DNA from: a virus
Lineage: Duplodnaviria; Heunggongvirae; Uroviricota; Caudoviricetes
Virus record (IMG/VR): IMGVR_UViG_3300009784_000001
Coordinates: 295,944 to 359,943 of that record
Strand: one strand, 5' to 3'
Length of the DNA stretch: 64,000 nucleotides
The position numbers and the translations under genes are program-made. The notes under the pieces were generated by a model that searched no databases, had not been told where the DNA came from, and saw nothing but the letters and a program-made list of their open reading frames with translations. This document shows, one piece after another, positions 3,895 to 18,544 of the stretch. Numbering within the stretch: the first letter of the stretch is position 1; each line of letters starts with the position of its first letter.

Positions 3895-4017
3895 TTATTT
3901 TTGTCTAATAATTACACGTCTGTTTCCACTTCTATTTACAAAAGGTCTTTGAATTGGTTTTTGTATTTGTGAAGTAGTTCTTTGTTGAACTTGTGGTTTG
4001 GATTTACAATTACACAT
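3895..4017 (-). CDS. small basic Cys-start peptide (40 aa, MCNCKSKPQVQQRTTSQIQKPIQRPFVNRSGNRRVIIRQK), not in the ORF track
   Basis: read manually; minus-strand TATTTAT at 4038-4044 upstream. Confidence 0.6.
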   Translation of the reverse strand: MCNCKSKPQVQQRTTSQIQKPIQRPFVNRSGNRRVIIRQK

Positions 4018-4216
4018 ACTTTCTACTATTTATTGAAATAAATATTGATTAATTATATTTTTTTAACATTTTATACTTTGAAATTAAAAAATAAATTTAT
4101 ATCTTTGCAGTGTAATTCAAATGAATTAGTGTTGAAGTGATAACTGAGTAAGAACATGATACTTCAAATAAATGTAGTGAGAGATGTACAGCTTTATTCA
4201 TTTTTTTAGATAAGGT

Positions 4217-4338
4217 TCCCCTGTAGCTCAGTTGGTTAGAGTACTTAAAATGAAGTTTTCTGGGTAGGAAATGTTCAGCAATATCAATCAAAATCGCTGT
4301 TAACGAAGGGGTCGGCAGTTCGAGTCTGTCCAGGGGTT
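4217..4338 (+). ncRNA. tRNA-Asn(GTT)-like RNA interrupted by a 48-nt insert (4246-4293)
   Basis: CCCCTG/CAGGGG acceptor stem, D arm, GGCAG-TTCGAGT-CTGTC T arm; removing the insert restores CTTCG-CTGTTAA-CGAAG. Confidence 0.75.
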
Positions 4339-4385
4339 CAAAGATTTCTTATTTAGATTAAAATAAGTGGCAGAGAAGAGGATTA

Positions 4386-4442
4386 AGAAAACATACAGCA
4401 TTTTTTATCAATTCAACCATAGGAAAGAAAAAGTGTTTTCTG
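4386..4442 (+). ncRNA. CAGCA-motif small RNA
   Basis: AGAAAACA-TACAGCA...TGTTTTCT-G; ends nearly identical to 10262..10315. Confidence 0.7.
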
Positions 4443-4668
4443 AAATAAAAAGATAGGGTTCACTGAGTTAAAGTGAATAGTTCAATACCAAGGTGAGGGA
4501 AGTGTTGAATGATAATATAAGTCCTTACATGTAATATAACTACATATCTAACATGTTTTATATATAGTCATGAATGTTATAAAACCTCTGGAACATTTTT
4601 TTTTATTAGGGTAGTTTTCATTGGATTAGACCCTGACTTTATGGTAAGTTATATTTACCTTAATTTAT

Positions 4669-4744
4669 TGGAACTTAGCTCAGCTTGATTTAGAGCATCT
4701 GTTTTACAAGCAGAGGGCCGTGGGTTTAAATCCCCCAGTTCCAA
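4669..4744 (+). tRNA. tRNA-Val(TAC)
   Basis: TGGAACT/AGTTCCA acceptor; TCTGT-TTTACAA-GCAGA. Confidence 0.85.
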
Positions 4745-4753
4745 CAATTAAAT

Positions 4754-4825
4754 CGGGGGATAGAGCAGTGGTAGCTCACCAGGCTCATAACCTGGAGGTC
4801 GAAGGTTCGATCCCTTCTCCCCCAA
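4754..4825 (+). tRNA. tRNA-Met(CAT), C1:A72 mismatch (initiator-like)
   Basis: CCAGG-CTCATAA-CCTGG; canonical T arm. Confidence 0.9.
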
Positions 4826-4829
4826 CAAT

Positions 4830-4958
4830 AGGAAAGGTACAGCAAATTGAATTAAAATTCTATTTACAATTTTACTATGAGGAAGAGAGCTTTCATCTAA
4901 AATAGGTGGAAAACAACTCTCAAAGAAATGAGTACTTCTCTAAAAACTCTCTTTCCTG
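4830..4958 (+). ncRNA. CAGCA-motif small RNA (long variant)
   Basis: AGGAAAG-GTACAGCAA...CTTTCCT-G with internal hairpin TTTCATCTA/TAGGTGGAAA. Confidence 0.6.
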
Positions 4959-5110
4959 ATATCATAAAATAAATCTTTACATCAAGGTGTACATAAATCT
5001 GTATAGTGGTACAAATGAGGGGCAAAGGAGAAGAATTTGCGTAGTCCGCTTGGAGTATCGGGTAGCTATGGTTGGGAAAGGTAAAGATTTATTTTTAATT
5101 TTTATATAAT

Positions 5111-5545
5111 ATGTTATATTCAATATTATTAACATTAGGATTATTAATTTTAGCTCATTTTATTGGAGATTGGAGTAAATTTGTTCCATTTCATCAAAAA
5201 GTAGTTAATGCAAAAGTTAATAAAACCAATACATCTGGAAATTGGATATTTTTACATTCAAGTATTGTATCTCTGTATAAAATATTTGCAATTTTAATTT
5301 CATCTTGGATTATTCCAATAGGAAATATGCCAGGTTTTTTGAATACAATATGGTTTTATATTATTCTTGTAGTAATATTTTTTGGAGAACTAATAACACA
5401 TTTTGTATTTGATATTTCTAAATGGTTTCTAAATAATAAATATAATCTGAATCCATCAAAAGATATTTATTGGACTGTTGTTGGTATTGACCAAATGCTA
5501 CATTATTTAGTAATGTTAGGAATGTTATATTTATTATATTGTTAA
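5111..5545 (+). CDS. DUF3307-like membrane protein
   Basis: AHFIGD, HFVFD, DQMLH motifs; hydrophobic helices. Confidence 0.7.
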   Translation: MLYSILLTLGLLILAHFIGDWSKFVPFHQKVVNAKVNKTNTSGNWIFLHSSIVSLYKIFAILISSWIIPIGNMPGFLNTIWFYIILVVIFFGELITHFVFDISKWFLNNKYNLNPSKDIYWTVVGIDQMLHYLVMLGMLYLLYC

Positions 5546-5553
5546 TTTTATAT

Positions 5554-5639
5554 GGCTATGTGGCGTAATTGGGAGCCGCAGGGGACTTAAAATCCCCTCT
5601 CCTGTAAAGGAGGTACAGGTTCAAGTCCTGTCATAGCTA
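5554..5639 (+). tRNA. tRNA-Leu(TAA)
   Basis: GGGGA-CTTAAAA-TCCCC; long variable arm. Confidence 0.9.
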
Positions 5640-5640
5640 C

Positions 5641-5761
5641 GATGAGAATTAGCTCAGTTGGTAGAGCAAAGGTATTATAAAAAGTTTCTTGAATAAGAAA
5701 TGTTCAGCAATATTTAAAAATGGGAACTTTATGTCAGCAGTTCGAGCCTGCTATTCTCATC
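5641..5761 (+). ncRNA. tRNA-like RNA whose anticodon loop is replaced by a ~55-nt CAGCA-motif insert
   Basis: GATGAGAAT/ATTCTCATC acceptor stem, canonical D arm, AGCAG-TTCGAGC-CTGCT T arm; insert shares GAAATGTTCAGCAATAT with 4217..4338. Confidence 0.75.
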
Positions 5762-5766
5762 CACAT

Positions 5767-5840
5767 TTTCTGGTAGTTCAATTGAATAGAACCTTCGGCT
5801 TCTACCCGAAAAGTTGGGAGTTTGAATCTCCCCCAGAAAG
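5767..5840 (+). tRNA. tRNA-Arg(TCT)
   Basis: TTCGG-CTTCTAC-CCGAA; TTTCTGG/CCAGAAA. Confidence 0.85.
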
Positions 5841-5857
5841 CAAAATAAATAGAAAAA

Positions 5858-6088
5858 ATGAGTAGTTGTATTAATAGATTAGATGATGAATTAGATGACC
5901 AGCAATGGAAAGAAATGGTATTAAAATGGAATGGTTTCAAATTTAAAGTAATTGATGAATTAAATGAAGTTAAAATTAAGAATAAATATGATACCAAAGA
6001 AGTTGAAGAATGGAAATTTTTATTTAATAATAAATCCAAAATATTAGCGAATAGAGAATTGATTAACTTATTAAAAAATTGGGAATGA
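5858..6088 (+). CDS. hypothetical protein
   Basis: 76 aa ORF. Confidence 0.55.
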   Translation: MSSCINRLDDELDDQQWKEMVLKWNGFKFKVIDELNEVKIKNKYDTKEVEEWKFLFNNKSKILANRELINLLKNWE

Positions 6089-6297
6089 ATATAAAGGTAA
6101 AAGAATTAATAAGTAAATTACAATTATTTAATCCAGAAGCCGAAGTTGATATTCTATTTAATAATCAACCTTATCCTTTGGAAATATATGGTTGGAATTG
6201 TGGTGGAGATAATAATTATTCTTCAACTGAATCTAAACAAAAAGCTATTTCAGTATCATTAGGTGGGATTGGGTTAAATGATAGTGAAAGAATGTAA

Positions 6298-6633
6298 ATG
6301 AAAAGTAAATTTGAATGTAGAGATAAAGTATCATATAATACATTTGAAGAAGCAAATAAAGTATTATCAGTATGGGATAAAAAGAAAAATAATAGTGAAC
6401 AATATGCTTATTCTTGTAAAGAATGTGGAAAGATACATATTACCAGTAGAAAGAAACATCTAAATAAAGTAAAACCAATTAAATATAAGGAAATTGGATT
6501 TACAAATGAGGATAGAAAAAAATGGGGTGGTAGTCGTTCAGTTAAAGAGCAAAAAGAACTTGTAGAAGTATTGTATAAAGGAAGAGAAAATAAAAGAGTT
6601 ACTTTTGGAGATTTATTAAAAAAAGAATATTAA
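6298..6633 (+). CDS. hypothetical protein with zinc finger (YSCKECGKIH)
   Basis: C..K..Y and YxCxxCGxxH pattern. Confidence 0.6.
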   Translation: MKSKFECRDKVSYNTFEEANKVLSVWDKKKNNSEQYAYSCKECGKIHITSRKKHLNKVKPIKYKEIGFTNEDRKKWGGSRSVKEQKELVEVLYKGRENKRVTFGDLLKKEY

Positions 6634-6705
6634 GTTTTTTTAATACAAAATATTTTGGTAACTCAAAAATAATTCTTATCTTTGTAGTGTTATTTGAAAT
6701 TATAA

Positions 6706-6893
6706 CGAGAGGTAGCTTAATGGCAGAGCGCAGTCGGAATGTAAAATTGCAATTTAATGTTCTTAAACAAGACTGAATGGTGTGCTGTGAAAGTTTGAAA
6801 AAAGTGAATACAAACTGAATGGGGTTGCAAACCTTGCAAGTTATGATGCTTGAAGTAGAATGAGTAATTGAGGTTCAATTCCCACCCTCTTGA
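6706..6893 (+). ncRNA. large tRNA-like RNA (~190 nt)
   Basis: CGAGAGG/CCTCTTG acceptor-like stem, D arm TAGCTTAATGGCAGAGC, GGTTCAATTCC T loop, long central insert; own promoter at 6654-6684. Confidence 0.6.
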
Positions 6894-6912
6894 CAAAAAA
6901 AATTAAATTGAT

Positions 6913-7179
6913 ATGAAAACATTAAGAGAAAGACAAATTGGTGAAAGATTTAAATATAGAAAAAATATAGTTGAAGTCAAATCTGTTATTTATAACAAAT
7001 GTTTTTATTGTCAATTTAGAAATCAATCTAAATGGATTGTAATTCTAAATGGTTGTTATCAAGAAAAAAATATGTTTGATTCTTGTTCAAAGAAACATAA
7101 TTGTTCAAGATATACCAGAAAGGATAAAAAAGATGTTTATTTCAAACTAGTCAAAAGACTTTATTTAGAAAGAAAATGA
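6913..7179 (+). CDS. hypothetical Cys-rich protein
   Basis: CFYCQF...CSRYTRKDKKDVYF. Confidence 0.6.
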   Translation: MKTLRERQIGERFKYRKNIVEVKSVIYNKCFYCQFRNQSKWIVILNGCYQEKNMFDSCSKKHNCSRYTRKDKKDVYFKLVKRLYLERK

Positions 7180-7739
7180 TAGGTTCAAATAACACTGATA
7201 AGTTTAAGATATTCCAAATAAGATGGGCTGAAAAGTTGGGTTATAACGATAATCCATATTTAATAAGGTGGACATTTATATTTTTTGGATATTCAATGAG
7301 AATACATCATTGGATTAAATCAGATGATAATAGATATTTTCATGATCATTCAAGTGATTTGTTAAGCATTGTATTAAAAGGAAAATATACAAATGTTAAA
7401 CCTCTTATGTGGAAGAAAAATTTACCTCCAACTCATTTATTTGAAGTTGAATTACCACCAGAATCTTCAATAAAGAGAAAGTTTATTTCAAATACTGTAG
7501 AGTATCCAGTTGAAGGTATTTTTAATTCTTGGAAAAATTTCTTCAATATGAAGAAATCAATATGGTTTTCAAAAGCAACTGAACAACATTACTTGAGTAT
7601 TCCAAAAAAAGGTGCATGGACATTGTTATTTGAAGGAAAAGCATATCATAAGTGGGGATTTTATGTAAATCAACATAAATGGAGACCATTAAGATATTTC
7701 TCAAAGTTTGGTATAATACAAACAGAAAATTATCAATAA
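7176..7739 (+). CDS. hypothetical protein, cupin-like HDH motif
   Basis: IHHW..SDD.RYFHDH...WGF. Confidence 0.55.
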   Translation: MIGSNNTDKFKIFQIRWAEKLGYNDNPYLIRWTFIFFGYSMRIHHWIKSDDNRYFHDHSSDLLSIVLKGKYTNVKPLMWKKNLPPTHLFEVELPPESSIKRKFISNTVEYPVEGIFNSWKNFFNMKKSIWFSKATEQHYLSIPKKGAWTLLFEGKAYHKWGFYVNQHKWRPLRYFSKFGIIQTENYQ

Positions 7740-8081
7740 TTTTTAACATAAAAAATTTGGTCATTAAAAATAAAATTTGTATCTTTGCATTATAAATTAT
7801 GTTTTATTGATAGATTCAGGTACTGAATATTGGCACTGTAAAATATAGTTTAGAGTAATAGGCAGTAAGTCATATATCTATGAGTAGAGGGTAACGTTTG
7901 AAATTAGTATATACTCCTTTGAAAAAGTGCAATGACCTATTATTTTTTATTAAATATTGATAATTTTTTAAATAATAGTATATTTATATTAAAAAACTTA
8001 TAAATGGGTATTGAACCATAAATAAAAAGTAAAAACAAAAAAAGCAATGGGAACAGATGCTTAAAAAAAGAAAAAAAAGAA

Positions 8082-8213
8082 ATGAGAGAATTTAGTAAAC
8101 ATATTAATAATTTTGTTGAGGTTAGTTATAAACCCAATAGTAATTGTAATTCAAATGAAAAACCATTTGAAGATGATAATAATTTGCTAAAAGGATTTTG
8201 TGTATATATGTAA
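8082..8213 (+). CDS. leader peptide 1 (43 aa, MREFSKHINNFVEVSYKPNSNCNSNEKPFEDDNNLLKGFCVYM)
   Basis: manual translation; 14 of codons 17-34 are K/P/N/E/D; precedes a terminator and the Glu/Asn/Asp/Pro/Pro/Lys tRNAs. Confidence 0.8.
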   Translation: MREFSKHINNFVEVSYKPNSNCNSNEKPFEDDNNLLKGFCVYM

Positions 8214-8234
8214 CATTTACTCAAATATACGTTC

Positions 8235-8284
8235 CACAAACCCTGATAGCAAAATTAAAAAAGTTATCAGGGTTTTGTGTTTTT
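8235..8284 (+). terminator. attenuator terminator 1
   Basis: CACAAACCCTGATAGC / GTTATCAGGGTTTTGTG plus T run, ending 7 nt before tRNA-Glu. Confidence 0.85.
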
Positions 8285-8291
8285 AATATAT

Positions 8292-8362
8292 GGCGCATTA
8301 GTTTAGTGGTAGAACAGGCGGTTTTCAGCCGAAGGAGAGGGTTTCGATTACCCTATGCGCTA
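8292..8362 (+). tRNA. tRNA-Glu(TTC)
   Basis: CGG-TTTTCAG-CCG (short anticodon stem); GGCGCAT/ATGCGCT. Confidence 0.8.
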
Positions 8363-8369
8363 CAAATAT

Positions 8370-8442
8370 GTACCTGTGGCAGAGTGGTTTATGCACTTGA
8401 CTGTTAATCAAGACTACGAAGGTTCGATCCCTTCTGGGTACG
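8370..8442 (+). tRNA. tRNA-Asn(GTT)
   Basis: CTTGA-CTGTTAA-TCAAG. Confidence 0.9.
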
Positions 8443-8450
8443 CAAAAATA

Positions 8451-8522
8451 GAGAGTATAGCATAATCTGGTAAGTGTGCCTTCCAAGTGGGAAGGAGATG
8501 TGGTTCAAATCCAATACTTTCT
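8451..8522 (+). ncRNA. atypical tRNA-like gene, anticodon undetermined
   Basis: cloverleaf with CCTTC-CAAGTGG-GAAGG (no U33); weak T stem. Confidence 0.6.
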
Positions 8523-8530
8523 GCAAAAAT

Positions 8531-8602
8531 AGTCTATTGGTCCAGCGGTTAGGATGCCAGATTGTCAATCTGGTGGCGAGGGTTCAACTCCCTTATAGAC
8601 TG
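8531..8602 (+). tRNA. tRNA-Asp(GTC)
   Basis: CCAGA-TTGTCAA-TCTGG; G73. Confidence 0.9.
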
Positions 8603-8608
8603 CTATTT

Positions 8609-8681
8609 CTGGGTGTAATTCAGTAGGAAGAATGCTTGGTTTGGGACCAAGATGTCGGGAGTTCGAGCCTCTCTACTCAGA
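8609..8681 (+). tRNA. tRNA-Pro(TGG)
   Basis: CTTGG-TTTGGGA-CCAAG; C1:G72. Confidence 0.9.
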
Positions 8682-8688
8682 CAAAATT

Positions 8689-8764
8689 CGGATAGTAGGG
8701 AAGCTCGGTCGTTCCCGCCTGCCCTGGACGCAGGAGATCATAGGTTCAAATCCTGTTTATCCGA
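8689..8764 (+). tRNA. tRNA-Pro(TGG), variant loop (C33, A37)
   Basis: CCTGC-CCTGGAC-GCAGG; C1:G72. Confidence 0.8.
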
Positions 8765-8901
8765 CTATAATTAAAAAAGTTAAAGGGACTTTGAAAAGAA
8801 TTATAAGTGAAAATAATATGAGTAATAAATTAAAAATAAAACGAAAATGTAGCTGACCTCACAGTTAATATGGGCTGTGAGGTTGGGAATAAGGATATTA
8901 C

Positions 8902-8974
8902 TCCCTCATAGCTCAATGGTTTAGAGCTTCTGTCTTTTAAACAGAAGAACCAGGTCCGATTCCTGGTGGGGGAA
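8902..8974 (+). tRNA. tRNA-Lys(TTT)
   Basis: TCTGT-CTTTTAA-ACAGA. Confidence 0.9.
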
Positions 8975-9210
8975 CTATAAAAATAAAAAAAAATGTTTTG
9001 GGATAACAAAAATAAATGTAAGAAGTATTGTATAGGTTGTAAATTTGCAAGTGAATTTAATAATAATTTTTATTGTGTTAATGAACTTGGTGAATATATT
9101 GTTGCAACAAAAAATCAAGTTTTAGTATCATTGGGATATACAGCTTTACATATATGTAGAGGTTTATTAATAAAGAAAAATTGCCCATTTTTTGAAAAAG
9201 ATAGAAAATT

Positions 9211-9459
9211 ATGAAAGAAATTAGTATTAAAGATGTAATTGATAATAGTAAAAGAGCTAAATTAACTCATGCTATTGCAGGGAGATTGTATTATAGGGTA
9301 GATGATATAGAAAGAAATACTACATATCAATTTTGTGTAGATATGAATGATAAAGAAGATGTTGGTTCAACTACATTTATTGTAGATGAAAAAGCTATTC
9401 TTTTAATGAGATATATTAGAAAATCAAAAGATTCTGGTGATTTAATTCAAATTAAATAG
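9211..9459 (+). CDS. hypothetical protein
   Basis: 82 aa ORF. Confidence 0.65.
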   Translation: MKEISIKDVIDNSKRAKLTHAIAGRLYYRVDDIERNTTYQFCVDMNDKEDVGSTTFIVDEKAILLMRYIRKSKDSGDLIQIK

Positions 9460-9786
9460 CATAATGAGTTTTATTTATGAAATAAAAAATTTAGAGAAAA
9501 TAAAAGAAGAAGGTAGTATTTACATTCAATGCCCATGTTGCCAAGAAAGTTTTGATTATTATCTAGATAAATATGAATTAGATATTTTGAATAAAGAAGA
9601 GGACATTTATTGTAAGTGTATAGAATGTGGTAATTCTTTCTATCTTTCTTTGTAGATTATCAAAAAGTGATAAAAATCATTTTATGTATTGTAAAAGATG
9701 AAAAGAATAAATTTGGTATATTCAATAATAATTTGTACTTTTGCGATATAATTATCTATTTATAGATACAACAAAAAAGTATAAAA

Positions 9787-10122
9787 ATGAAAAAAAGAAT
9801 TATTATTTTATTATCATTATTTTTCATAATGAACATAAGTCAAGCAGCTATTTATAAAACAAAAAGTGAAAGTGATGTAATTGAGAATAGTACAGGTTTA
9901 TTTGGAGAAAAAAAAGTAGAGAAAATTGAAAATACAGAAGATAATTATGGTGGATTATTCAGAGCATCAGATCCAGGTGGAAGACCAGGGAATGGTGATG
10001 GAATTGGTCAGCAAGCACCATTAGGTGATGGATTAAAAATATTACTTATACTTTGTTTTTTCTTTCTTCTTTATGAATTTTCTACAAACAAAAAAATTAA
10101 CATAAAAAATTTGGATAATTAA
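9787..10122 (+). CDS. secreted protein with signal peptide and C-terminal PLGDG-TM-basic tail (PID-CTERM-like)
   Basis: MKKRIIILLSLFF..SQA signal; APLGDGLKILLILCFFFLLY tail. Confidence 0.55.
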   Translation: MKKRIIILLSLFFIMNISQAAIYKTKSESDVIENSTGLFGEKKVEKIENTEDNYGGLFRASDPGGRPGNGDGIGQQAPLGDGLKILLILCFFFLLYEFSTNKKINIKNLDN

Positions 10123-10178
10123 AAAATAAATTGTAATTTTGTAGAGTAATAAGATATTTATAAGATATAAAAATAGAT

Positions 10179-10256
10179 CGTGGTGTGGAGGAGTCTGGCT
10201 TTCCTCATCTGGCTCATAACCAGAATGTCACATGGGTTCAAATCCCATCACCGCAA
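10179..10256 (+). tRNA. tRNA-Met(CAT), C1:A72 mismatch (initiator-like)
   Basis: TCTGG-CTCATAA-CCAGA. Confidence 0.9.
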
Positions 10257-10261
10257 CAAAT

Positions 10262-10315
10262 AGAAAACATACAGCATTTTTTCAATTTTCAATGGGAGAA
10301 AAAAAGTGTTTTCTG
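10262..10315 (+). ncRNA. CAGCA-motif small RNA
   Basis: AGAAAACA-TACAGCA...TTTTC-AATGGGA-GAAAA...TGTTTTCT-G. Confidence 0.7.
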
Positions 10316-10324
10316 AAAAAAATA

Positions 10325-10406
10325 AGGAAAGATACAGCAATGTTAAATGGTTAAAAGAAAATTCTGTAAAAATTTTTTGAAAAGGTTCAAATCCTATTCT
10401 TTCCTG
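10325..10406 (+). ncRNA. CAGCA-motif RNA enclosing a degenerate tRNA-Tyr-like body
   Basis: AGGAAAGA-TACAGCAA..AATGGTT..AAATT-CTGTAAA-AATTT..AGG-TTCAAAT-CCT..TCTTTCCT-G. Confidence 0.7.
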
Positions 10407-10442
10407 TAAATTTGAAAAGTTAAATTAAAAAAAATAGAAAAA

Positions 10443-10553
10443 ATGAAACAAATTAGTAGTACATATTGTCTTGGAAGTTCATCAGCGATTAGTTTTGCTG
10501 GTACAACATCCTTTTGTACTTATCATTTTTATGATAATTTTGTTTCAAGTTAA
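10443..10553 (+). CDS. leader peptide 2 (36 aa, MKQISSTYCLGSSSAISFAGTTSFCTYHFYDNFVSS)
   Basis: 25 of codons 4-30 are S/Y/F/L/C/T/A/I/H, the amino acids of the downstream tRNAs. Confidence 0.85.
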   Translation: MKQISSTYCLGSSSAISFAGTTSFCTYHFYDNFVSS

Positions 10554-10582
10554 AAAAAGAATTACCTTAACCTGGCAAGGAT

Positions 10583-10627
10583 AAACCTGAAACAAATCTA
10601 TAAAAAAGAAAAGTTTCAGGTTTTTTT
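10583..10627 (+). terminator. attenuator terminator 2
   Basis: AAACCTGAAAC / GTTTCAGGTTT plus T run, just before tRNA-Ser. Confidence 0.85.
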
Positions 10628-10636
10628 AATTTATAT

Positions 10637-10721
10637 GGAAAGTAAACCTATAAGGTGTAGGAACCGCCTGCTAAGCGAGTTGTACAATTAAATGTATGTG
10701 AATCGTGTTCACTGCTCTCCG
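10637..10721 (+). tRNA. tRNA-Ser(GCT)
   Basis: CGC-CTGCTAA-GCG; long variable arm; G73. Confidence 0.8.
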
Positions 10722-10762
10722 CAAAAGTTCTTTGAAATTGTTGGTTAATTATAAATTATTAT

Positions 10763-10845
10763 GGATTAGTTGGGTAGTGGCAATCCCAAGACACTGTAAC
10801 TGTCTCGCCTTCGGGCTTTCGCTGGTTCGAGTCCAGCCTAATCCA
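10763..10845 (+). tRNA. tRNA-Tyr(GTA)
   Basis: AGACA-CTGTAAC-TGTCT; variable arm GCC-TTCG-GGC. Confidence 0.9.
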
Positions 10846-10886
10846 CATAAAAATATTTTTCTTAATAACTATACTTTTTTAGTTCG

Positions 10887-11858
10887 ATGCGATATTTATA
10901 TATAAATGTAAATATTATGATAAAGGAACGAGAAGAATTAATTATTAAAATAATAAAAGAGAGTAATAGTATTTCAGAGGTTTGTAAAAAGTTAAATATA
11001 TCTGTTACTAATGGTAATTATATAACAATAAAAAAAATAATAAAAAACAATAATTTAGATATATCTCATTTTAAAAGAGTTTCACAAAATTCTAATAAAA
11101 AGCGATATACGTTACAAGAAATTATGGTTGAAAATTCATCATACACCAATGTAAATAAATTAAAGAAAAGATTAATTAAAGAAGGGATTAAGGAAAATAA
11201 ATGTGAAATATGTGGAATAAGTAAATGGAATGGAGAACAAATTTCTTTACAATTGCATCATAAAAATGGTATCACAAGTGATAATAGAATAGAAAATTTA
11301 CAAGTACTTTGTCCCAATTGTCATTCTCAAACACATAACTATGGTGGGAAAAATATAGATAATAAAATAAGAGAAGATAGATTTTGCAGAATATGTGAGA
11401 AAAAGTTAAACGATACACAAAAAAAGTATTGTTCAATCAATTGCTATAATAAAAGTATTGATGATAATATTCCAACTAAAAACAAAATCTTATCTTATAT
11501 AAAAAATTATACAACACTTGTAGAATTATGTAAAAAAGAAAAAATTGATAGAGGGACATTTAGAAATTGGTGTAATAAAAGACAATGTATAGATGATGTA
11601 AATTTTTTGTTGAAAAAAAATTTTGAAATAAAAATTTTAAATATTGAAGTTAAGAATGATTTATATGAAAAAAGATGTGAATTAATAAATAAATTTAAAA
11701 AATTTGGGTCATTCTTACAAGTAGGTAAATATTATGGAGTATCCGATAATATGATAAGAAAAAGATGTAAAAAAATTGGTTTACCTGTTCATACAAAAGA
11801 AATGATAAAATTAATAAATTCGGAAGAATGTCAGAGTGCTTTATTGTACAACTCTTGA
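10887..11858 (+). CDS. HNH homing endonuclease (start may be 10917); 3' end overlaps tRNA-Ser
   Basis: CEICG...LQLHHKNG..DNRIENLQVLCPNCHSQT. Confidence 0.85.
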   Translation: MRYLYINVNIMIKEREELIIKIIKESNSISEVCKKLNISVTNGNYITIKKIIKNNNLDISHFKRVSQNSNKKRYTLQEIMVENSSYTNVNKLKKRLIKEGIKENKCEICGISKWNGEQISLQLHHKNGITSDNRIENLQVLCPNCHSQTHNYGGKNIDNKIREDRFCRICEKKLNDTQKKYCSINCYNKSIDDNIPTKNKILSYIKNYTTLVELCKKEKIDRGTFRNWCNKRQCIDDVNFLLKKNFEIKILNIEVKNDLYEKRCELINKFKKFGSFLQVGKYYGVSDNMIRKRCKKIGLPVHTKEMIKLINSEECQSALLYNS

Positions 11859-11906
11859 AAAGTTGTGAACTTTCGAGTTCCGTAGGTTGGAATCCTACTT
11901 CTTCCG
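11822..11906 (+). tRNA. tRNA-Ser(TGA)
   Basis: CAACT-CTTGAAA-AGTTG; long variable arm. Confidence 0.85.
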
Positions 11907-11917
11907 CAAGATAATAA

Positions 11918-11990
11918 GGGATAGTAACATAGAAGTTTATGTGCTGGTCTGAAAAACCAGAAATGCTTGAGGCGGTATCAGCCTATCCCA
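11918..11990 (+). tRNA. tRNA-Phe(GAA)
   Basis: CTGGT-CTGAAAA-ACCAG; atypical T loop. Confidence 0.8.
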
Positions 11991-12000
11991 CAAATTAAAT

Positions 12001-12086
12001 GCTTCAATGGGGGAATTGCTAGACCCGCTTGATTTAGGCTCAAGTTTCTGGGAACAGAAGTGTAGGTTGGATTCCTACTTGAAGTA
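12001..12086 (+). tRNA. tRNA-Leu(TAG)
   Basis: CTTGA-TTTAGGC-TCAAG; long variable arm. Confidence 0.85.
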
Positions 12087-12092
12087 CAATAT

Positions 12093-12164
12093 GTTCAGTT
12101 GCCAGAGTGATAATGGGGTAGACTGCAAATCTATTTTTCGTTGGTTTGAATCCAACACTGAATT
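12093..12164 (+). tRNA. tRNA-Cys(GCA)
   Basis: GTAGA-CTGCAAA-TCTAT; U73. Confidence 0.85.
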
Positions 12165-12176
12165 CAAAAAATAAAT

Positions 12177-12247
12177 GCTGTGTTAGTATAAGAGTATTAC
12201 ATTGGCTTTGTAACCCAAAAATGGGGATGCGATTTCCTCACACAGCT
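12177..12247 (+). tRNA. tRNA-Thr(TGT)
   Basis: GCTGTGT/ACACAGC; loop TTTGTAA. Confidence 0.8.
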
Positions 12248-12256
12248 CTAAATTAA

Positions 12257-12328
12257 GGGCTTATCATATAATAGCTATTATGCCACCCCTGCAAGGTGGT
12301 TATTGGAGTGCAATTCTCCATAGGTCCA
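12257..12328 (+). tRNA. tRNA-Ala(TGC)
   Basis: CCACC-CCTGCAA-GGTGG; G3:U70. Confidence 0.85.
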
Positions 12329-12407
12329 CTTATTTAGCATTTATTAACTTGAATAATTTTGATATTAGATAATATTTTCTTATCTTTGTATCATTAAAAT
12401 AAATGGT

Positions 12408-13022
12408 ATGAAAAAGATAGAATTAGTTTATAATAATTTAGATATTAATAATTTACCAGGTGAAATATGGGTAGATGCTTATGATTTTGATGGTTATTAT
12501 GAAGTATCCAATATGGGGAGGATAAAAACTTGTGAAAGAGAAGTCAGTAATGGAGTTGGGACAAGAATAGTAATTAGTAAAATTAGGAAACAGGTTTTAG
12601 GTAAAGATGATAGATTAACTTGTCCCTTTACTATAAATAATGAAAGTATATCTATAAATGTTTCAAGGTTAATCTTTCAATCTTTTAACCCCACTAAGAT
12701 TTTAGATAATTTAGTGGTTTCACATAGAAATAGATGTAAATGTGATAATAGATTGAATAATTTAAAAGTGGAAACATTACAAAACAATCATTTTGATAAT
12801 GTTCATAAGTATAATTATGGCTTAAAAGAACATTTGTTAAAACTGAATAAAATTAAACATGAAAAATTTGTCAATACAATAAAAAGCAAAGTTTGTAATA
12901 AATGTGGAATAGAAAAAGATATAATAGAATTTGTATATAAAAGAGAAGGAAAAAGAGATGAAAATAGAAATATATGTAAAATGTGTAGAAATAAACGTGA
13001 AAGAAATAGAATTAAAAAATGA
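12408..13022 (+). CDS. NUMOD4/HNH homing endonuclease
   Basis: EIW...GYYEVSNMGRIK (NUMOD4); VSHRNRCKCDNRLNNL. Confidence 0.8.
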   Translation: MKKIELVYNNLDINNLPGEIWVDAYDFDGYYEVSNMGRIKTCEREVSNGVGTRIVISKIRKQVLGKDDRLTCPFTINNESISINVSRLIFQSFNPTKILDNLVVSHRNRCKCDNRLNNLKVETLQNNHFDNVHKYNYGLKEHLLKLNKIKHEKFVNTIKSKVCNKCGIEKDIIEFVYKREGKRDENRNICKMCRNKRERNRIKK

Positions 13023-13441
13023 GTTATAAAGATTTTTTTCAAAAACCAGAGTTTGATTTGGATGAAGTAGAAGAAAAAAGAGTAAATGCTTTGAAACCAG
13101 ATGAAAATGGTGATTTAATGGAAAATGGTGATTATATTTTTCAGGATAGAGCAATTCATAATCAACAAGGTAATACAATTCAGCGTTCTTTTACAACTGT
13201 AAAGGGAGTTAGAGTAATGGAAGATACTTACATACCCTGGTCATGCTTTCAACCAATGAGGATGACTTTTGTGGTAGATTTGACATTGCCTGATGATACA
13301 TTACCAACAACTGAAACAAGTTGGATGCAAAATTGGTATGAGCCTGAAGGATTTGCTCATCCTGCATTTGTAAATTTTGAAGATGTTGTTGAATTTATAA
13401 TTAAATGGAGAAAAAGTAACCCTAAAGTGGTTAATAATTAA
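13019..13441 (+). CDS. hypothetical protein
   Basis: 140 aa ORF. Confidence 0.65.
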   Translation: MSYKDFFQKPEFDLDEVEEKRVNALKPDENGDLMENGDYIFQDRAIHNQQGNTIQRSFTTVKGVRVMEDTYIPWSCFQPMRMTFVVDLTLPDDTLPTTETSWMQNWYEPEGFAHPAFVNFEDVVEFIIKWRKSNPKVVNN

Positions 13442-13449
13442 ATAAAAAT

Positions 13450-13522
13450 GTTCAGTTCTTCTAATGGTTTAGGAAGCAAGACTGATATTCTTGTAATATA
13501 AGTTCGATTCTTATACTGAACA
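13450..13522 (+). tRNA. tRNA-Ile(GAT)
   Basis: CAAGA-CTGATAT-TCTTG. Confidence 0.85.
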
Positions 13523-13524
13523 CT

Positions 13525-13602
13525 GTGTGGGTAGCTAATATTGGTTAAGGCACTAGATTGTGGCTCTAGGTTTTTATGGGGGTTCGATTCCCCTCTCACA
13601 CC
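13525..13602 (+). tRNA. tRNA-His(GTG)
   Basis: CTAGA-TTGTGGC-TCTAG; C73. Confidence 0.85.
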
Positions 13603-13667
13603 AAAAATAAGAAAGTTTTGTTATTTAAAAAATTATTCATATCTTTGTATTGTAAATTAAATAAGAT

Positions 13668-14174
13668 ATGAAAAAAATCAGAAAATTTGTATTTGAAACA
13701 AACAGTTCAAGTTCTCATTCTATTACATTAGGTGATTTAGATTCATTTAGAAAAGATAGATATGGATTAAAATCTTGTATAGATGAAAATAACAATCTTG
13801 TATTAAAAGGTGGTGAATTTGGTTGGTATTTAGAAGATGATGAGGGTGCTGAAACAAAAGTAAATTATGTTGCAGTAGCTTTAACTTATTATTATGAAGC
13901 TGCGAAAGACAATGAAGAAAATTATTATGGTTTTACATTAGATGAAATCAATAATATTATTGAATTATTTAAAGAAGTTTTGAGAGAAGAAACAGATGCA
14001 GAAGTTGTTTTCAATTTTAAAGTAGGTTGGGAAGATTCTTACATTGATCATCAATCTATTGATATGATTGCAGATGAAATTAAAGGTAAAAATGATTCAG
14101 AATTGAAAGAATTTTTCTATAATTTCATTTTTAATGAAAATTCAATATTAATAATTGATAATGATAATCATTAA
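13668..14174 (+). CDS. FETNSSS-motif protein 1
   Basis: MKKIRKFVFETNSSSSHS; YIDHQS. Confidence 0.75.
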   Translation: MKKIRKFVFETNSSSSHSITLGDLDSFRKDRYGLKSCIDENNNLVLKGGEFGWYLEDDEGAETKVNYVAVALTYYYEAAKDNEENYYGFTLDEINNIIELFKEVLREETDAEVVFNFKVGWEDSYIDHQSIDMIADEIKGKNDSELKEFFYNFIFNENSILIIDNDNH

Positions 14175-14373
14175 TTATGAATGAAGATAGTGGAGTTAGT
14201 TGTGGATGTGGTTGTTTTTCTTTTAGTATAGGTTGGGGGACTATTATTGCTGTAATATTAAGTTGAATGAAATGGCATTCAATTGGATGGGTAATTATTC
14301 ATGGGTTATTAGGATGGTTATATGTAATATATTATATTGCAAAATATGTGTTATTAAATTAAAAATATATAAT

Positions 14374-14814
14374 ATGAAAAAAATTAGAATTAGTGTTTTT
14401 GAAACGAATAGTTCCAGCACTCATAGTCTTACAATTGTATCAAAAGAAGATTTTGAGAAGTGGAAAAAAGGTGAATTTATTTTTGACAGAAGTAATGATG
14501 AATTAGTTCCTGTTAAAGAGAAGCAATATACAGAAGAAGATTATTTAAATTATCTTAAAGATAAAGCCAAAAAAGTTGCAAATGGATATATTTTTAGAGA
14601 TGTTTATTATAAAAATCTAGATGAAATATTATCATTAAATCTTATTTCTAATGATGAAATGAATGAATATTTAGAAGATGAAGGATATGATTATGATTTT
14701 CAAACTTATAAAGATTGGGAAAATGATGAATATCTTGAAACATTTCAATATTCACATACTACTCCAAGTGGAGATGAAATTGTGGTTTTTGGTAGATATG
14801 GTTATGATGGATAA
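14374..14814 (+). CDS. FETNSSS-motif protein 2 (start corrected from 14233)
   Basis: MKKIRISVFETNSSSTHS matches the N-terminus of the preceding gene. Confidence 0.75.
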   Translation: MKKIRISVFETNSSSTHSLTIVSKEDFEKWKKGEFIFDRSNDELVPVKEKQYTEEDYLNYLKDKAKKVANGYIFRDVYYKNLDEILSLNLISNDEMNEYLEDEGYDYDFQTYKDWENDEYLETFQYSHTTPSGDEIVVFGRYGYDG

Positions 14815-14962
14815 TATATGATTTCGATAATACAACAAAAAAATATAATAAAAGAATTTATTGATTATCTACCTTTTTCTGTTCTAACAAATGAACATTC
14901 TAGGTATAAAAAGGAAATAAGTTTATATGATTATCTTGAAGAATATATTAAAAAATTAAGAG

Positions 14963-15904
14963 ATGGAGATATTGAAATCATACAAAAATGGTAATGTTGA
15001 AATTACATTATATGATAATGGAACGAGGGTAATGGAATATGATGAAACTAAACCATTATTATTTGATTATCCTACATCTATGGATATTAAAATTACTAAT
15101 TATTGTGAAGGCGGAAAGATAACCAAGAATGGTGATTTTAAATTGTGCCAATTTTGTCATGAGGAATCAAATAAAGATGGAAAACATGCTAATTTAATTG
15201 AATTAAGTAATATTTTATTTGATATTCCAGAAGGAGTTGAAATTGCACTAGGTGGAGGTAATCCATTATCACATCCAAATTTAGTTGCTTTTTTATTAAG
15301 ATGTAAAAAACAAGGTTTAATTCCTAATTTAACAGTTAATAAAAATCATCTTGTTTTTTATTATGATTTATTAAAAAATTTAATAGATAATAAATTAATT
15401 TATGGATTAGGCATATCAATTCCTACTTCTGTATGTGAATGGAATGAAAAAGAGTTATTTTTTGTAAATTATAAACATTCAGTTGCTCATTTAATTATAG
15501 GATTGCATTCTACTAAAATAATAAATATTTTAAGAAAGATTGGTTTCAAAAAATTTTTATTATTGGGCTATAAAGAATTTGGAAGAGGTATAAAATATTA
15601 TAATAGTCATTCTAATAAAATAAATGAAAATATTAAAGAATGGGAAAACAATATATTAAATATTCTAACTACTGCTAATGTAATTTCTTTTGATAATTTA
15701 TCTATTAGTCAACTTAATTTACAATCTAAATTGCCTAAGAAATTGTGGGATAAATTTTATCAAGGAGATGATTTTAGTTCAACTTTGTATTTGGATGCTG
15801 TAACTAAACAGTTTGCTCCTACTTCAAGAAGCAATAAAAATGAAAGGGTAAATTGGAAAGATATAAGTTTATTAGATTATTTCAGAGATAATAGAAGAAA
15901 GTAA
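14963..15904 (+). CDS. radical SAM protein
   Basis: DIKITNYC-x13-CQFCHE; EIALGGGNPL. Confidence 0.8.
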   Translation: MEILKSYKNGNVEITLYDNGTRVMEYDETKPLLFDYPTSMDIKITNYCEGGKITKNGDFKLCQFCHEESNKDGKHANLIELSNILFDIPEGVEIALGGGNPLSHPNLVAFLLRCKKQGLIPNLTVNKNHLVFYYDLLKNLIDNKLIYGLGISIPTSVCEWNEKELFFVNYKHSVAHLIIGLHSTKIINILRKIGFKKFLLLGYKEFGRGIKYYNSHSNKINENIKEWENNILNILTTANVISFDNLSISQLNLQSKLPKKLWDKFYQGDDFSSTLYLDAVTKQFAPTSRSNKNERVNWKDISLLDYFRDNRRK

Positions 15905-15931
15905 AAGTTAGATATTTATTATAAAAAAGTA

Positions 15932-16786
15932 ATGAAGAATTTAGATGAAATAAAGTTTTTATTTGAAAGAAAAGAAGAAGAGACTTTTCAAGAATATAGT
16001 GATAGAAAGGAAAAAGAACGAAGTGTATCAAGTAGTTGTAATCATAAGGGGGGGGGGATTCTTAATGAATCTGTTTCAAAAAAAAGTACTTCTGAAAGAC
16101 CAAATTTTATTTCTGAAATAAAAGGTTCAACAACTAATACATGGTCTTTACATAGACTTGATGAGATGACTGTACAAAGATTATTAGGAAAACATTCTAA
16201 TAATGGTTATATAATTATATCAGCAAGTAGAGGAGTGGAAAATGAATGGAATGAACAACAGAAACAAGAACAAAGAAGATTGAATAATGAAAATTATCAA
16301 AAATTATTAGCTTCAATAAAAAATAGTGGCTTTTCTTTTATTCCTGTATATGGTGGATTTGTTGAAAATTTAGGAGAAGAAGATGAAAGACAGGTTTATG
16401 AAAAATCATTTATTGTTTTGAATTTTAATAGAAAAGGAAATGAAATGGATTTTAATGAACTTTATCAAAAAGGTTTAGAATGGACTGAAGAATTTGATCA
16501 AGATTCATTTTTATCAAAGGCTCCTGATTCAACACCAGAATATGTTGATAAAGGAGGAAATGTAACAATGAAGTTTGGTGGGGATATAAAAGTAAATGAT
16601 TTAACTCAACAATATTTCACAGATTTCGTTAAGTCAAAACAATTAGGTCAAGAAACAAATACAAAGGGTGATTCAATGAGTAGAGAACACAGGATTACTT
16701 TTGAAGGAGTATTTATAAATCCTGAACCTGCTACTTTGAGTGAAAGAGTTGTAAGGGATTATTTAAATGAATTATTTTTGAAATAA
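15932..16786 (+). CDS. hypothetical phage protein
   Basis: IISASR...GGFVE...EKSF...FDQDS; TATTTAT motif upstream. Confidence 0.7.
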   Translation: MKNLDEIKFLFERKEEETFQEYSDRKEKERSVSSSCNHKGGGILNESVSKKSTSERPNFISEIKGSTTNTWSLHRLDEMTVQRLLGKHSNNGYIIISASRGVENEWNEQQKQEQRRLNNENYQKLLASIKNSGFSFIPVYGGFVENLGEEDERQVYEKSFIVLNFNRKGNEMDFNELYQKGLEWTEEFDQDSFLSKAPDSTPEYVDKGGNVTMKFGGDIKVNDLTQQYFTDFVKSKQLGQETNTKGDSMSREHRITFEGVFINPEPATLSERVVRDYLNELFLK

Positions 16787-16807
16787 TGTGATATTTATAT
16801 AAATAAA

Positions 16808-16900
16808 ATGAAAAAAAATACAAACATATTATTAGTTGGGCAACAAGGTTGGCAACAATTTGGACAAGGCTGTGGCAATGTTCCTGATAATGGTATGTAA
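16808..16900 (+). CDS. leader peptide 3 (30 aa, MKKNTNILLVGQQGWQQFGQGCGNVPDNGM)
   Basis: 11 of codons 11-23 are G/Q/W; the downstream tRNAs are Gln, Gly, Trp. Confidence 0.85.
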   Translation: MKKNTNILLVGQQGWQQFGQGCGNVPDNGM

Positions 16901-16934
16901 GTATATAAGGATAACCTTCGCAAATGGTGGCTCT

Positions 16935-16971
16935 GGCTTACATTACTATTAAAAGTATGTAAGCCTTTTTT
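16935..16971 (+). terminator. attenuator terminator 3
   Basis: GGCTTACAT / ATGTAAGCC plus TTTTTT, 7 nt before tRNA-Gln. Confidence 0.85.
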
Positions 16972-16978
16972 AATTTAT

Positions 16979-17050
16979 AGATTAGTGGTATAATGGTTAT
17001 TACACATCGCTTTGAACGATGGAATTCCTGTTCAATTCAGGACTAATCTA
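16979..17050 (+). tRNA. tRNA-Gln(TTG)
   Basis: CATCG-CTTTGAA-CGATG. Confidence 0.85.
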
Positions 17051-17164
17051 CATCATATCAATGGCAATAGATATGATAATAGAATAGAAAATTTACAAAT
17101 ACTTTGTCCTAATTGTCATTCTCAAACTGATAGTTATGCAGGAAAAAGTAGTAGAAAAAAATAA
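17051..17164 (+). pseudogene. HNH endonuclease remnant
   Basis: HHINGNRYDNRIENLQILCPNCHSQTDSYAGK with no start codon; close to the core of 10887..11858. Confidence 0.8.
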
Positions 17165-17167
17165 AAT

Positions 17168-17239
17168 GCGTCATTCGTATAGTGCTTATTATGCGACTCT
17201 TCCAAAGTCAGGACATCGGTTGGATTCCGATATGGCGCA
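17168..17239 (+). tRNA. tRNA-Gly(TCC)
   Basis: GACT-CTTCCAA-AGTC; GCG 5' end. Confidence 0.85.
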
Positions 17240-17249
17240 CAAAATATAT

Positions 17250-17320
17250 ACGTGTTTGGTGTAATGGTAGCATAACTCCCTCCAAATGAGTTGGTTAGGG
17301 TTCGAGTCCTTAAATACGTG
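17250..17320 (+). tRNA. tRNA-Trp(CCA)
   Basis: loop CTCCAAA; G73. Confidence 0.85.
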
Positions 17321-17449
17321 CTTACTTTGAAATGTTAAATAATCTAAAATTTTTATATTATCTAATTTATTAACATTTTCTATTTGTATAATAGAAAAAA
17401 TTATCTTATCTTTGTTCCATAATTAATAACAATTTAAATTTTTAATAAT

Positions 17450-18544
17450 ATGGCACATAATTTAGAGAACAGAGAGGGAGAATACAGTTTTGTAAGTGCA
17501 GCTTCACAACCTGCTTGGCATAATCTTGGTAAAGTTTTTAATAAACCTAATTTGACAATTGAGGAAGCTATTAATGAAGTAAGAGCTAATTATAATGTAA
17601 GAAAAGATTATCTGTTACGAATTACTAATGAAGATATTGAAAGAATTAAGAATGGTTTACCATTGAATGAAGTTTTTGATATGAAAGATATTATCAAAAC
17701 TCACCAATGTACTGTTCGTGAAGATTTGAATAATGTTTTAGGAGTTGTTGGAAGTGGTTATGAAGTAGTTCAAAATCTTCAAGGATTTGAATTTGTTCAG
17801 GATATTTTGAATGGAATTGAAGGAAATGTTGGGAATAATAAGCCTTATATTCAAACTGCTGGTGTATTAGGAAATGGTGAAAGAATTTTTGTTAGTGCAA
17901 AATTTCAAAATCCTGTTAAAATTAAAGGAAGTGATGATATAATTGAAGATTACATTTTGTTTACCAATGCACATGATGGCTCAGGTGCTGTAATTGCTAC
18001 TTTTACTCCAACAAGAGTTGTTTGTAATAATACTTTGAATATGGCATTGTCAGGAGCTAAAAATAAAATTTATTTTAAGCATACAAAGAATGTTCATGGT
18101 AAATTGGATTTGAAAAATACAGATAATTTGAATATGGCTTTGAGTGTATTAAGAGGACATCAAGTATATATTGAAACTTTAACTTCACAGTTAGCAAAAT
18201 TGGAAGATATTAAATTGAATGAAAATGATGTTAAAAGAATTGTTGCTGGTACATTTTTAGAGCCTGCTCAAGTAAAAGAATTTGTTCAAAATCAGTATAA
18301 TCTTGATAAATTGGATATTTCTACAAAAAGTAAAAATAATATTGAAAATATGTTACATACAATAGATTGTGGTGTTGGGCAAACCATGTGGAGAGGGACT
18401 GGATTATGGGTTATTAATGGTTTCACTACTTATTATCAAAATAATAAAAGTTATAAGACTGAAGAAAAGAAATTTGATAGTATTATGGACGGTGATGCTT
18501 TCAAGAAAGTTCAAAGAGCATATGATTTAGTAAATGCTTATTGA
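17450..18544 (+). CDS. DUF932 / phage-plasmid-like protein (TIGR03299-like)
   Basis: PAWHNLG, VVQN, TAGVLGNGERIF, NAHDGS, RVVCNNTL. Confidence 0.85.
   Translation: MAHNLENREGEYSFVSAASQPAWHNLGKVFNKPNLTIEEAINEVRANYNVRKDYLLRITNEDIERIKNGLPLNEVFDMKDIIKTHQCTVREDLNNVLGVVGSGYEVVQNLQGFEFVQDILNGIEGNVGNNKPYIQTAGVLGNGERIFVSAKFQNPVKIKGSDDIIEDYILFTNAHDGSGAVIATFTPTRVVCNNTLNMALSGAKNKIYFKHTKNVHGKLDLKNTDNLNMALSVLRGHQVYIETLTSQLAKLEDIKLNENDVKRIVAGTFLEPAQVKEFVQNQYNLDKLDISTKSKNNIENMLHTIDCGVGQTMWRGTGLWVINGFTTYYQNNKSYKTEEKKFDSIMDGDAFKKVQRAYDLVNAY

Follow-up and report, generated by a model that had tools for sequence, protein, structure and literature searches.

A candidate multivalent leader-peptide attenuator upstream of tRNA genes in a jumbo-phage genome

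The final 64 kb of the 359,943-bp virus record IMGVR_UViG_3300009784_000001, hereafter called the window, has 26% G+C and carries about 28 transfer RNA (tRNA) genes packed in 14 kb, all on the + strand. Ten of these genes are preceded by a 36-codon open reading frame (ORF) and a hairpin with a run of T, whose 5' arm has a second pairing partner on the stop codon of the ORF. We consider it likely, judging from the sequence, that this element is a multivalent, trp-style transcription attenuator, in which a ribosome translating the leader peptide would control the phage tRNA genes downstream. The original prediction for this stretch had named such an attenuator. It is supported by the full anatomy of the locus, by two repeats of that anatomy in the same genome, and by a related phage, G003, in which the leader codons change with the tRNA set.

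The locus combines a short ORF bearing its own start, an enrichment of codons for the downstream tRNAs, a terminator, an antiterminator exclusive with it, and a frame and pairing arms that are conserved while the peptide has diverged. The leader ORF spans 10443–10553 on the + strand, exactly as predicted, from an ATG at 10443 to a TAA at 10551–10553. Its regulatory codons are codons 4–30. Reading them confirms that they specify only Ser, Thr, Tyr, Cys, Leu, Ala, Ile, Phe and His, plus two Gly. The claim that one leader samples ten tRNAs is also borne out, each downstream tRNA having at least one leader codon. Altogether 28 of the 35 codons are cognate to the ten tRNAs, for an expected fraction of 0.35. 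The choice among synonymous codons follows the array as well. The sole Leu codon is CTT, which belongs to the Leu(TAG) box and makes up 15% of Leu usage in the genome, and the dominant TTA is avoided; both Ile codons are ATT, with no ATA.

We compared this match with that of 986 chance-size ORFs of the same genome, at the levels of amino acids and of codons. At the amino-acid level the leader scores 0.80, a value equalled by about 5% of the chance-size ORFs. At the codon level, scored with the anticodons present in the array, it reaches 0.80 with relaxed wobble and 0.69 with strict wobble, equalled by 6 and 2 of the 986, respectively. The codon-level test is the sharper one, since the array has no tRNA for the common codons ATA and TTA/TTG. 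When a match of at least 0.8 is combined with coverage of all ten tRNAs, the leader stands alone among the 986 ORFs.

The absence of Lys, Asn, Glu and Asp from the regulatory codons had been described as very unusual for this genome. This holds against the proteome, represented by the 241 long ORFs of the genome (P = 4e-5 for a 27-codon stretch), and it is weaker against chance-size ORFs, of which 18 of 660 contain such a run. The statistic is weak in the second comparison because chance ORFs in AT-rich DNA are T-rich. The case rests on the codon-level and comparative tests, not on this composition.

Genes of the window have no Shine-Dalgarno sequence, and their start contexts are A-rich. With a start-context matrix trained on the 241 long ORFs, the leader ATG scores in the top 1% of ATGs of the genome and above about 80% of long-gene starts.

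Four segments make up the pairing architecture, all on the + strand. Segment 1 (10445–10452) lies at the beginning of the leader and pairs with segment 2 in the full-length fold. Segment 2 (10539–10551), the 5' arm of the antiterminator, overlaps the stop codon. Segment 3 (10584–10596) is common to antiterminator and terminator, and is the 5' arm of the latter. Segment 4 (10613–10628) holds the terminator 3' arm at 10613–10623 and the T run at 10621–10627. Pairing between 10539–10551 and 10584–10596 involves 12 of 13 positions, precisely as had been claimed. The terminator itself, within 10583–10628, pairs 10583–10593 with 10613–10623 (11 bp) across a 19-nucleotide (nt) loop, with a stem energy of about −16.6 kcal/mol, and is followed by seven T ending at 10627. 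The first tRNA gene of the array, tRNA-Ser(GCT), starts at 10637, 9 nt past the T run. Such a gap leaves no room for a promoter, and a terminator so placed makes the tRNAs reachable by read-through only.

We folded the RNA segment that begins immediately ahead of the stop codon and ends immediately ahead of the terminator 3' arm, and obtained the 2:3 antiterminator as the minimum-energy structure, at −11.7 kcal/mol; adding the 3' arm yields the terminator. When the nascent RNA ending at 10612 is folded with a ribosome masking part of it, the 2:3 helix is present in all states except the one with the ribosome on the stop codon. The 1:2 helix, formed by 10445–10452 with 10539–10546, accompanies the terminator at equilibrium. 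In all five attenuators compared (5/5), two of them in G003 and three in this genome, the best duplex formed by the terminator 5' arm ends at most 8 nt from the leader stop codon. It is the position of the antiterminator at the stop codon, not its energy, that stands out.

The mechanism that we infer from this geometry is the following. Transcription would start, probably near 10165, and proceed through tRNA-Met and a small structured RNA into the 36-codon leader, whose codons 4–30 would be read by the tRNAs encoded downstream. If decoding is fast, the ribosome would arrive at the stop codon and cover segment 2, leaving segment 3 free for segment 4; RNA polymerase would then terminate at the T run, stopping 9 nt short of tRNA-Ser(GCT). 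A shortage of any one of the nine aminoacyl-tRNA classes would stall the ribosome within codons 4–28. Segment 2, now exposed, would pair with segment 3 ahead of the synthesis of segment 4, the terminator would be blocked, and the polymerase would read into the tRNA genes. The outcome would be a negative feedback, with tRNA output maintained until phage codons are decoded fast enough.

The same arrangement occurs twice more in the window. Attenuator 1 (8082–8291) has a leader at 8082–8213 and a terminator at 8236–8285, followed by tRNAs for Glu, Asn, Thr, Asp, Pro, Pro and Lys. Attenuator 3 (16808–16978) has a leader at 16808–16900 and a terminator at 16933–16967, followed by tRNAs for Gln, Gly and Trp; 12 of its 29 leader codons specify these three amino acids, against an expected 10%. 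Leaders 1 and 3 are hydrophilic, unlike the leader described above (leader 2), and each mirrors its own array. All three leader ATGs rank in the top 1% of the genome's ATGs by start-context score, and the three terminators end 6–11 nt before the respective first tRNA. Attenuator 2 samples the largest tRNA set in the genome, and its array carries two homing-endonuclease insertions.

Relatives were collected by searching IMG/VR with a profile of the radical-SAM protein, which returned about 80 jumbo-phage records, and their tRNA regions were then examined. As single queries, the DUF932 protein, the radical-SAM protein and a 284-aa protein found almost no relatives in IMG/VR. A metagenome scan with neighbouring proteins gave one 2.2-kb contig only, and contigs with radical-SAM homologues from a large protein database showed no synteny and no tRNA arrays nearby.

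The one ortholog of attenuator 2 that was found lies in G003 (274,786 bp), at L097 5465–5665. A search of IMG/VR with the exact pattern of antiterminator and terminator arms also matched G003 alone. Its leader likewise has 36 codons, and the first seven and last fourteen bases, TAA included, are identical to those of the window. Over the whole peptide only 7 of the 36 residues are shared (19%), the shared ones fall in the RNA-pairing arms, and insertions and deletions come in threes. The core of segment 3 is the same. Helix 3:4 shows one compensatory change, from C-G to U-A, and helix 1:2 shows another, from A-U to U-A, that helix being otherwise kept. Low peptide identity with kept arms is the pattern expected if RNA pairing and codon class are selected, and not the peptide.

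Leader and array have changed together between the two phages. The G003 array is contiguous and reads Met, Ser, Ser, Tyr, Phe, Leu(TAA), Leu(TAG), Cys, Ala, Val, Ile, Trp, His, with four tRNAs that the window array does not have: Met, Val, Trp and Leu(TAA). The G003 leader contains Met, Val and Trp codons and three TTA/TTG codons, none of which occur in codons 2–33 of the window leader. The position of tRNA-Met differs as well: in the window phage tRNA-Met(CAT) (10179–10257, + strand; ARAGORN, Rfam) is upstream of the attenuator, its ortholog in G003 is downstream of the terminator, and only the G003 leader has an internal Met codon. Attenuator 1 behaves alike: its array in G003 gains Gly, Arg(ACG) and Gln, and its leader gains four Gly codons, four Gln codons and one CGT.

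These comparisons bear on another reading of the ORF, namely that its product is a functional small peptide, such as a hydrophobic one in the membrane, and that it has a terminator of its own, the tRNAs being expressed by leak-through or internal promoters and the likeness to the tRNA set being incidental. It is true that the peptide and its G003 ortholog are of equal length and rich in hydrophobic and small residues, that T-rich chance ORFs often share this composition, and that promoter-like motifs occur inside the array. However, all seven residues kept with G003 belong to pairing arms; the leaders of other phages, like leaders 1 and 3, are hydrophilic and very different, yet every one reflects the array behind it; Met, Val, Trp and TTR codons were gained where the matching tRNAs were gained; and a promoter cannot fit between the terminator and the first tRNA. 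We regard a functional peptide as very unlikely.

Attenuator-like leaders also occur in further jumbo phages. In G002 (367 kb), the leader core LPETYHNDQPEDN has thirteen consecutive cognate residues, with CTA as its Leu codon, and precedes tRNAs for Thr, Tyr, Glu, His, Asp, Asn, Gln, Pro and Leu(TAG). In a 6 × 6 matrix of the leaders described so far against their arrays, the true pairing ranks first of 720 permutations at the amino-acid, relaxed-codon and strict-codon levels. We also applied a blind detector, which ignores composition: a tRNA run qualifies if a terminator lies at most 110 nt upstream, and of the ATG ORFs ending at most 80 nt before this terminator the longest is taken. Applied to 160 tRNA runs at 29 loci, the detector yielded 21 distinct candidates, which as a set fit their own arrays better than permuted ones (p ~ 1e-5). 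The subset with arrays of at least three tRNAs gives p = 2e-4 (n = 11).

The detector added cases in distant phages of 320–434 kb. One G016 leader has a core made only of Arg, Leu and Gln before Arg(ACG), Leu(AAG), Leu(TAG), Gln(CTG) and Gln(TTG) tRNAs, with CGT, CGC, CTC, CTA, CAG and CAA all in use. A second unit in G016 has a core of Ser, Trp, Tyr, Glu and Pro before Tyr, Pro, Pro, Ser, Trp, Ser and Glu tRNAs. G011 and G009 share a Thr/Ser/Cys core before Ser, Ser, Thr and Cys tRNAs, with a clear antiterminator, and G015 has a leader rich in His, Thr, Leu, Cys and Phe before His, His, Phe and further tRNAs. The leader units of distant phages are located on the reverse strand of L114 at 363–464 and 10728–10847 (G016), at L106 15857–15949 (G011/G009), on the reverse strand of L150 at 1057–1158 (G015) and on the reverse strand of L095 at 1441–1536 (G002). 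The antiterminator arm of G016 seems to lie just past the regulatory codons and not on the stop codon. A 20-codon ORF of G002 with three Trp codons (L100 660–722) precedes a lone tRNA-Trp; it overlaps a longer ORF in another frame and is doubtful. In G004, G005, G006 and the more distant L002 phage, no such leaders were found before tRNAs, so the design is not universal in this phage family. Low-threshold ARAGORN calls with CTA and TCA anticodons appear in G005 (L146 reverse strand, around 9180, and L147 reverse strand, around 8248); they are possibly suppressor tRNAs, which would imply stop-codon recoding.

With this comparative evidence, the reading that we hold least probable is a chance ORF beside a leaky but otherwise ordinary terminator that serves the upstream transcription unit. 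An open frame of 35 codons is expected about 6% of the time in this DNA, the amino-acid-level match is equalled by about 5% of chance ORFs, and pairing partners are easily found in AT-rich sequence. Chance does not account as readily for a codon match with full coverage that is unique among 986 ORFs, for a frame, a length and arms kept in G003 with 3-nt indels, for a true leader–array pairing that is the best of 720, for the p ~ 1e-5 of the blind screen, or for a start context in the top 1%; we disfavour it strongly.

The search with the arm pattern also matched prokaryotes, in about 17 Flavobacterium records (L125–L143). These matches are unrelated intergenic palindromes and were rejected. 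They consist of tandem copies of an 8-nt unit, GTTTCAAG or GTTTCAGG, and its complement, and they might hint at the host lineage.

The tRNA genes were detected with ARAGORN and Rfam models, at a lowered threshold for weak candidates. All ten tRNAs predicted downstream of the leader are present, nine of them by ARAGORN and/or Rfam at 42–60 bits, and all are on the + strand. The genes found by both methods are tRNA-Tyr(GTA) (10763–10846), tRNA-Ser(TGA) (11822–11907), tRNA-Leu(TAG) (12001–12087), tRNA-Cys(GCA) (12093–12165), tRNA-Ile(GAT) (13450–13523) and tRNA-His(GTG) (13525–13602). Three are found by Rfam at 42–51 bits: tRNA-Phe(GAA) (11918–11990; 42.1 bits, with the anticodon loop read from the sequence), tRNA-Thr(TGT) (12177–12248) and tRNA-Ala(TGC) (12257–12329). 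The tenth, tRNA-Ser(GCT) (10637–10722), is a class II tRNA with an atypical D arm and appears at the low threshold only. Three phages preserve its cloverleaf, with 11 of the 29 pairs showing compensatory changes, and by blastn it resembles annotated tRNA-Ser genes of Acinetobacter phages.

The array is split twice. Between Tyr and Ser(TGA) lies an ORF for an HNH homing endonuclease (10917–11858, + strand), which overlaps the 5' end of tRNA-Ser(TGA) and is absent from the contiguous array of G003. Between Ala and Ile lies a second insertion (12381–13441, + strand), made of the motif TATCTTTG at 12381–12388, a NUMOD4/HNH ORF at 12408–13022 and a 140-aa ORF at 13019–13441. The original prediction had cautioned that a host-type promoter might express Ile and His independently, and the motif at 12381–12388 is indeed present. 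TATCTTTG precedes several window genes; it fits the Bacteroidetes promoter element TAnnTTTG. A decayed fragment of a similar HNH gene is found in array 3, between tRNA-Gln and tRNA-Gly (around 17060–17165).

A different motif, ATATTTATA, resembles a phage promoter. Its copy at 10154–10162 (+ strand) is the nearest upstream of tRNA-Met and leader 2, and others are at 7980, before leader 1, at 10892–10900, before the HNH ORF, and at 16791, 9 nt before the ATG of leader 3. A related motif, CTATTTATAAT, stands about 20 nt upstream of leader ATGs in G003 and G002. The count of ATATTTATA in the window is not above chance and its positions alone are suggestive; with this limit, the placement of ATATTTATA and CTATTTATAAT suggests a phage promoter. 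Between tRNA-Met and leader 2 is a structured element, 10257–10440, that repeats one at 4340–4460 and closes with a stretch resembling a tRNA (22 bits with the Rfam tRNA model at 10342–10397; low-threshold ARAGORN, 10325–10406). This element would share its transcript with leader 2.

The extent of control follows from this map. Ser(GCT) and Tyr are the sole tRNA genes that follow the terminator without interruption, and in the window phage the putative gating by attenuator 2 would be certain for these two only, because the HNH cassettes, with the tRNAs that come after them, could be driven from the promoter-like motifs at 10892 and 12381. The codons of leader 2 nevertheless cover the entire ancestral block, uninterrupted in G003.

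Several observations weigh against attenuation of the array by this leader. The two internal motifs may allow eight of the ten tRNAs to be expressed independently, and no promoter motif stands directly before leader 2, unlike leader 3 and the leaders of G002 and G003. Some sensed amino acids, Leu and His, have one leader codon only, and sensitivity to them may be low; the two Gly codons have no matching tRNA in array 2. As to the RNA, the terminator prevails at equilibrium wherever the ribosome is placed once segment 4 is present, and a switch could only be kinetic. It would then act as in the trp operon: the geometry is that of a classical attenuator, and folding alone is no proof of it. The energy of the antiterminator duplex is modestly unusual, with 44 of 1000 shuffles as good. 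A standard terminator scan misses the hairpin, which has few G-C pairs, because of its 19-nt loop.

Part of this list also suits another output. It is possible, and we think unlikely, that leader translation is sensed as proposed while the response is the processing or stability of the tRNA precursor, through access of RNase P or E at the hairpin and U tract, or a Rho-type termination. The codon-to-tRNA link argues for translation sensing only and is silent on what is controlled; the terminator is thermodynamically dominant in all states and atypical in its loop; and the hairpin abuts the 5' end of a tRNA. On the other side, a hairpin with seven U has the canonical form of an intrinsic terminator. 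A near-copy of the terminator 3' arm on the stop codon, present in five attenuators and kept base for base in G003, is what a choice between terminator and antiterminator predicts. We retain transcription attenuation as the likely mode of control.

A broader proposal, which we advance tentatively and with less than even confidence, is that jumbo phages of several lineages may carry a distributed decoding sensor, each tRNA block standing behind its own multivalent attenuator so that the matching block is switched on. Such a sensor would make tRNA genes, for the first time, a target of attenuation, and would give the phage a built-in countermeasure to host defences that deplete tRNAs. If true, it would track in real time the codon classes that are poorly decoded in the infected cell, whether through a mismatch in codon usage, decay of host tRNAs, or tRNA-cleaving defence nucleases.

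Why phages carry tRNA genes, and how these are timed and dosed, is debated: compensation of codon usage, replacement of degraded host tRNAs and evasion of anticodon nucleases have been put forward. A leader that reports the decoding speed of the very codons served downstream would show a tRNA supply regulated by demand. It would also make the debate testable, by asking which depletion turns on which block. The correspondence between leader and array offers a simple signature by which co-regulated tRNAs could be predicted in uncultured phages, and the element would lend itself to synthetic circuits as a compact, natural sensor for the supply of a given tRNA.

Elsewhere in the window, two tRNA matches of about 120 nt, at 4217–4338 and 5643–5759 (Rfam 36 and 35 bits), are read by ARAGORN as intron-containing. 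The window also encodes a full-length Hsp70/DnaK (39863–41809; Pfam E = 9e-253) and a protein with a protein-kinase/RIO-like domain (56075–57760).

We found no published description of leader-peptide attenuation of tRNA genes in the full-text literature, where coverage is thin for subscription journals. E. coli pheV, considered as a candidate for attenuation, was dropped: it lies 105 nt from the upstream gene and has no leader. Control of translation-related genes by tRNA status through a terminator/antiterminator choice is known from T-box riboswitches, which the phage element would resemble in this respect. T-boxes bind uncharged tRNA directly, via a specifier codon and the T-box sequence, and without translation. 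A cmscan of 4000–18000 (E up to 1) gave tRNA-type matches only, with no T-box or other Rfam cis-regulatory family.

The E. coli pheST attenuator, with its pheM leader, is closer: it controls a synthetase gene by sensing the supply of charged cognate tRNA, and like the proposed phage element it is a leader-peptide attenuation of a component of the translation apparatus. Unlike the phage leader, it serves a protein gene and one amino acid, and is neither multivalent nor viral.

The nearest parallels are the attenuators of enterobacterial amino-acid operons. Several of these are multivalent, the ilvGMEDA leader sensing Ile, Leu and Val and the thr leader Thr and Ile; trpL, hisL, pheL and leuL belong to the same group. 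The phage element shares with them a short leader rich in the sensed codons, the 1:2, 2:3 and 3:4 helices, a segment 2 that would be masked by a ribosome at the stop codon, a terminator directly before the genes, and several amino acids per leader. It differs from them in that its leader fronts ten tRNA genes, with inserted HNH ORFs, and not the biosynthetic enzymes of a cell, the described members of this class serving genes of amino-acid biosynthesis or transport or of synthetases. It also differs in that ten tRNAs and nine amino acids are represented in one leader, each by one to five codons and none by a long run of a single codon. The classic mechanism of amino-acid and synthetase genes would thus extend to tRNA genes and to viruses, with a phage signal, unlike that of the enterobacterial operons, that would be decoding capacity, restored by the product itself.

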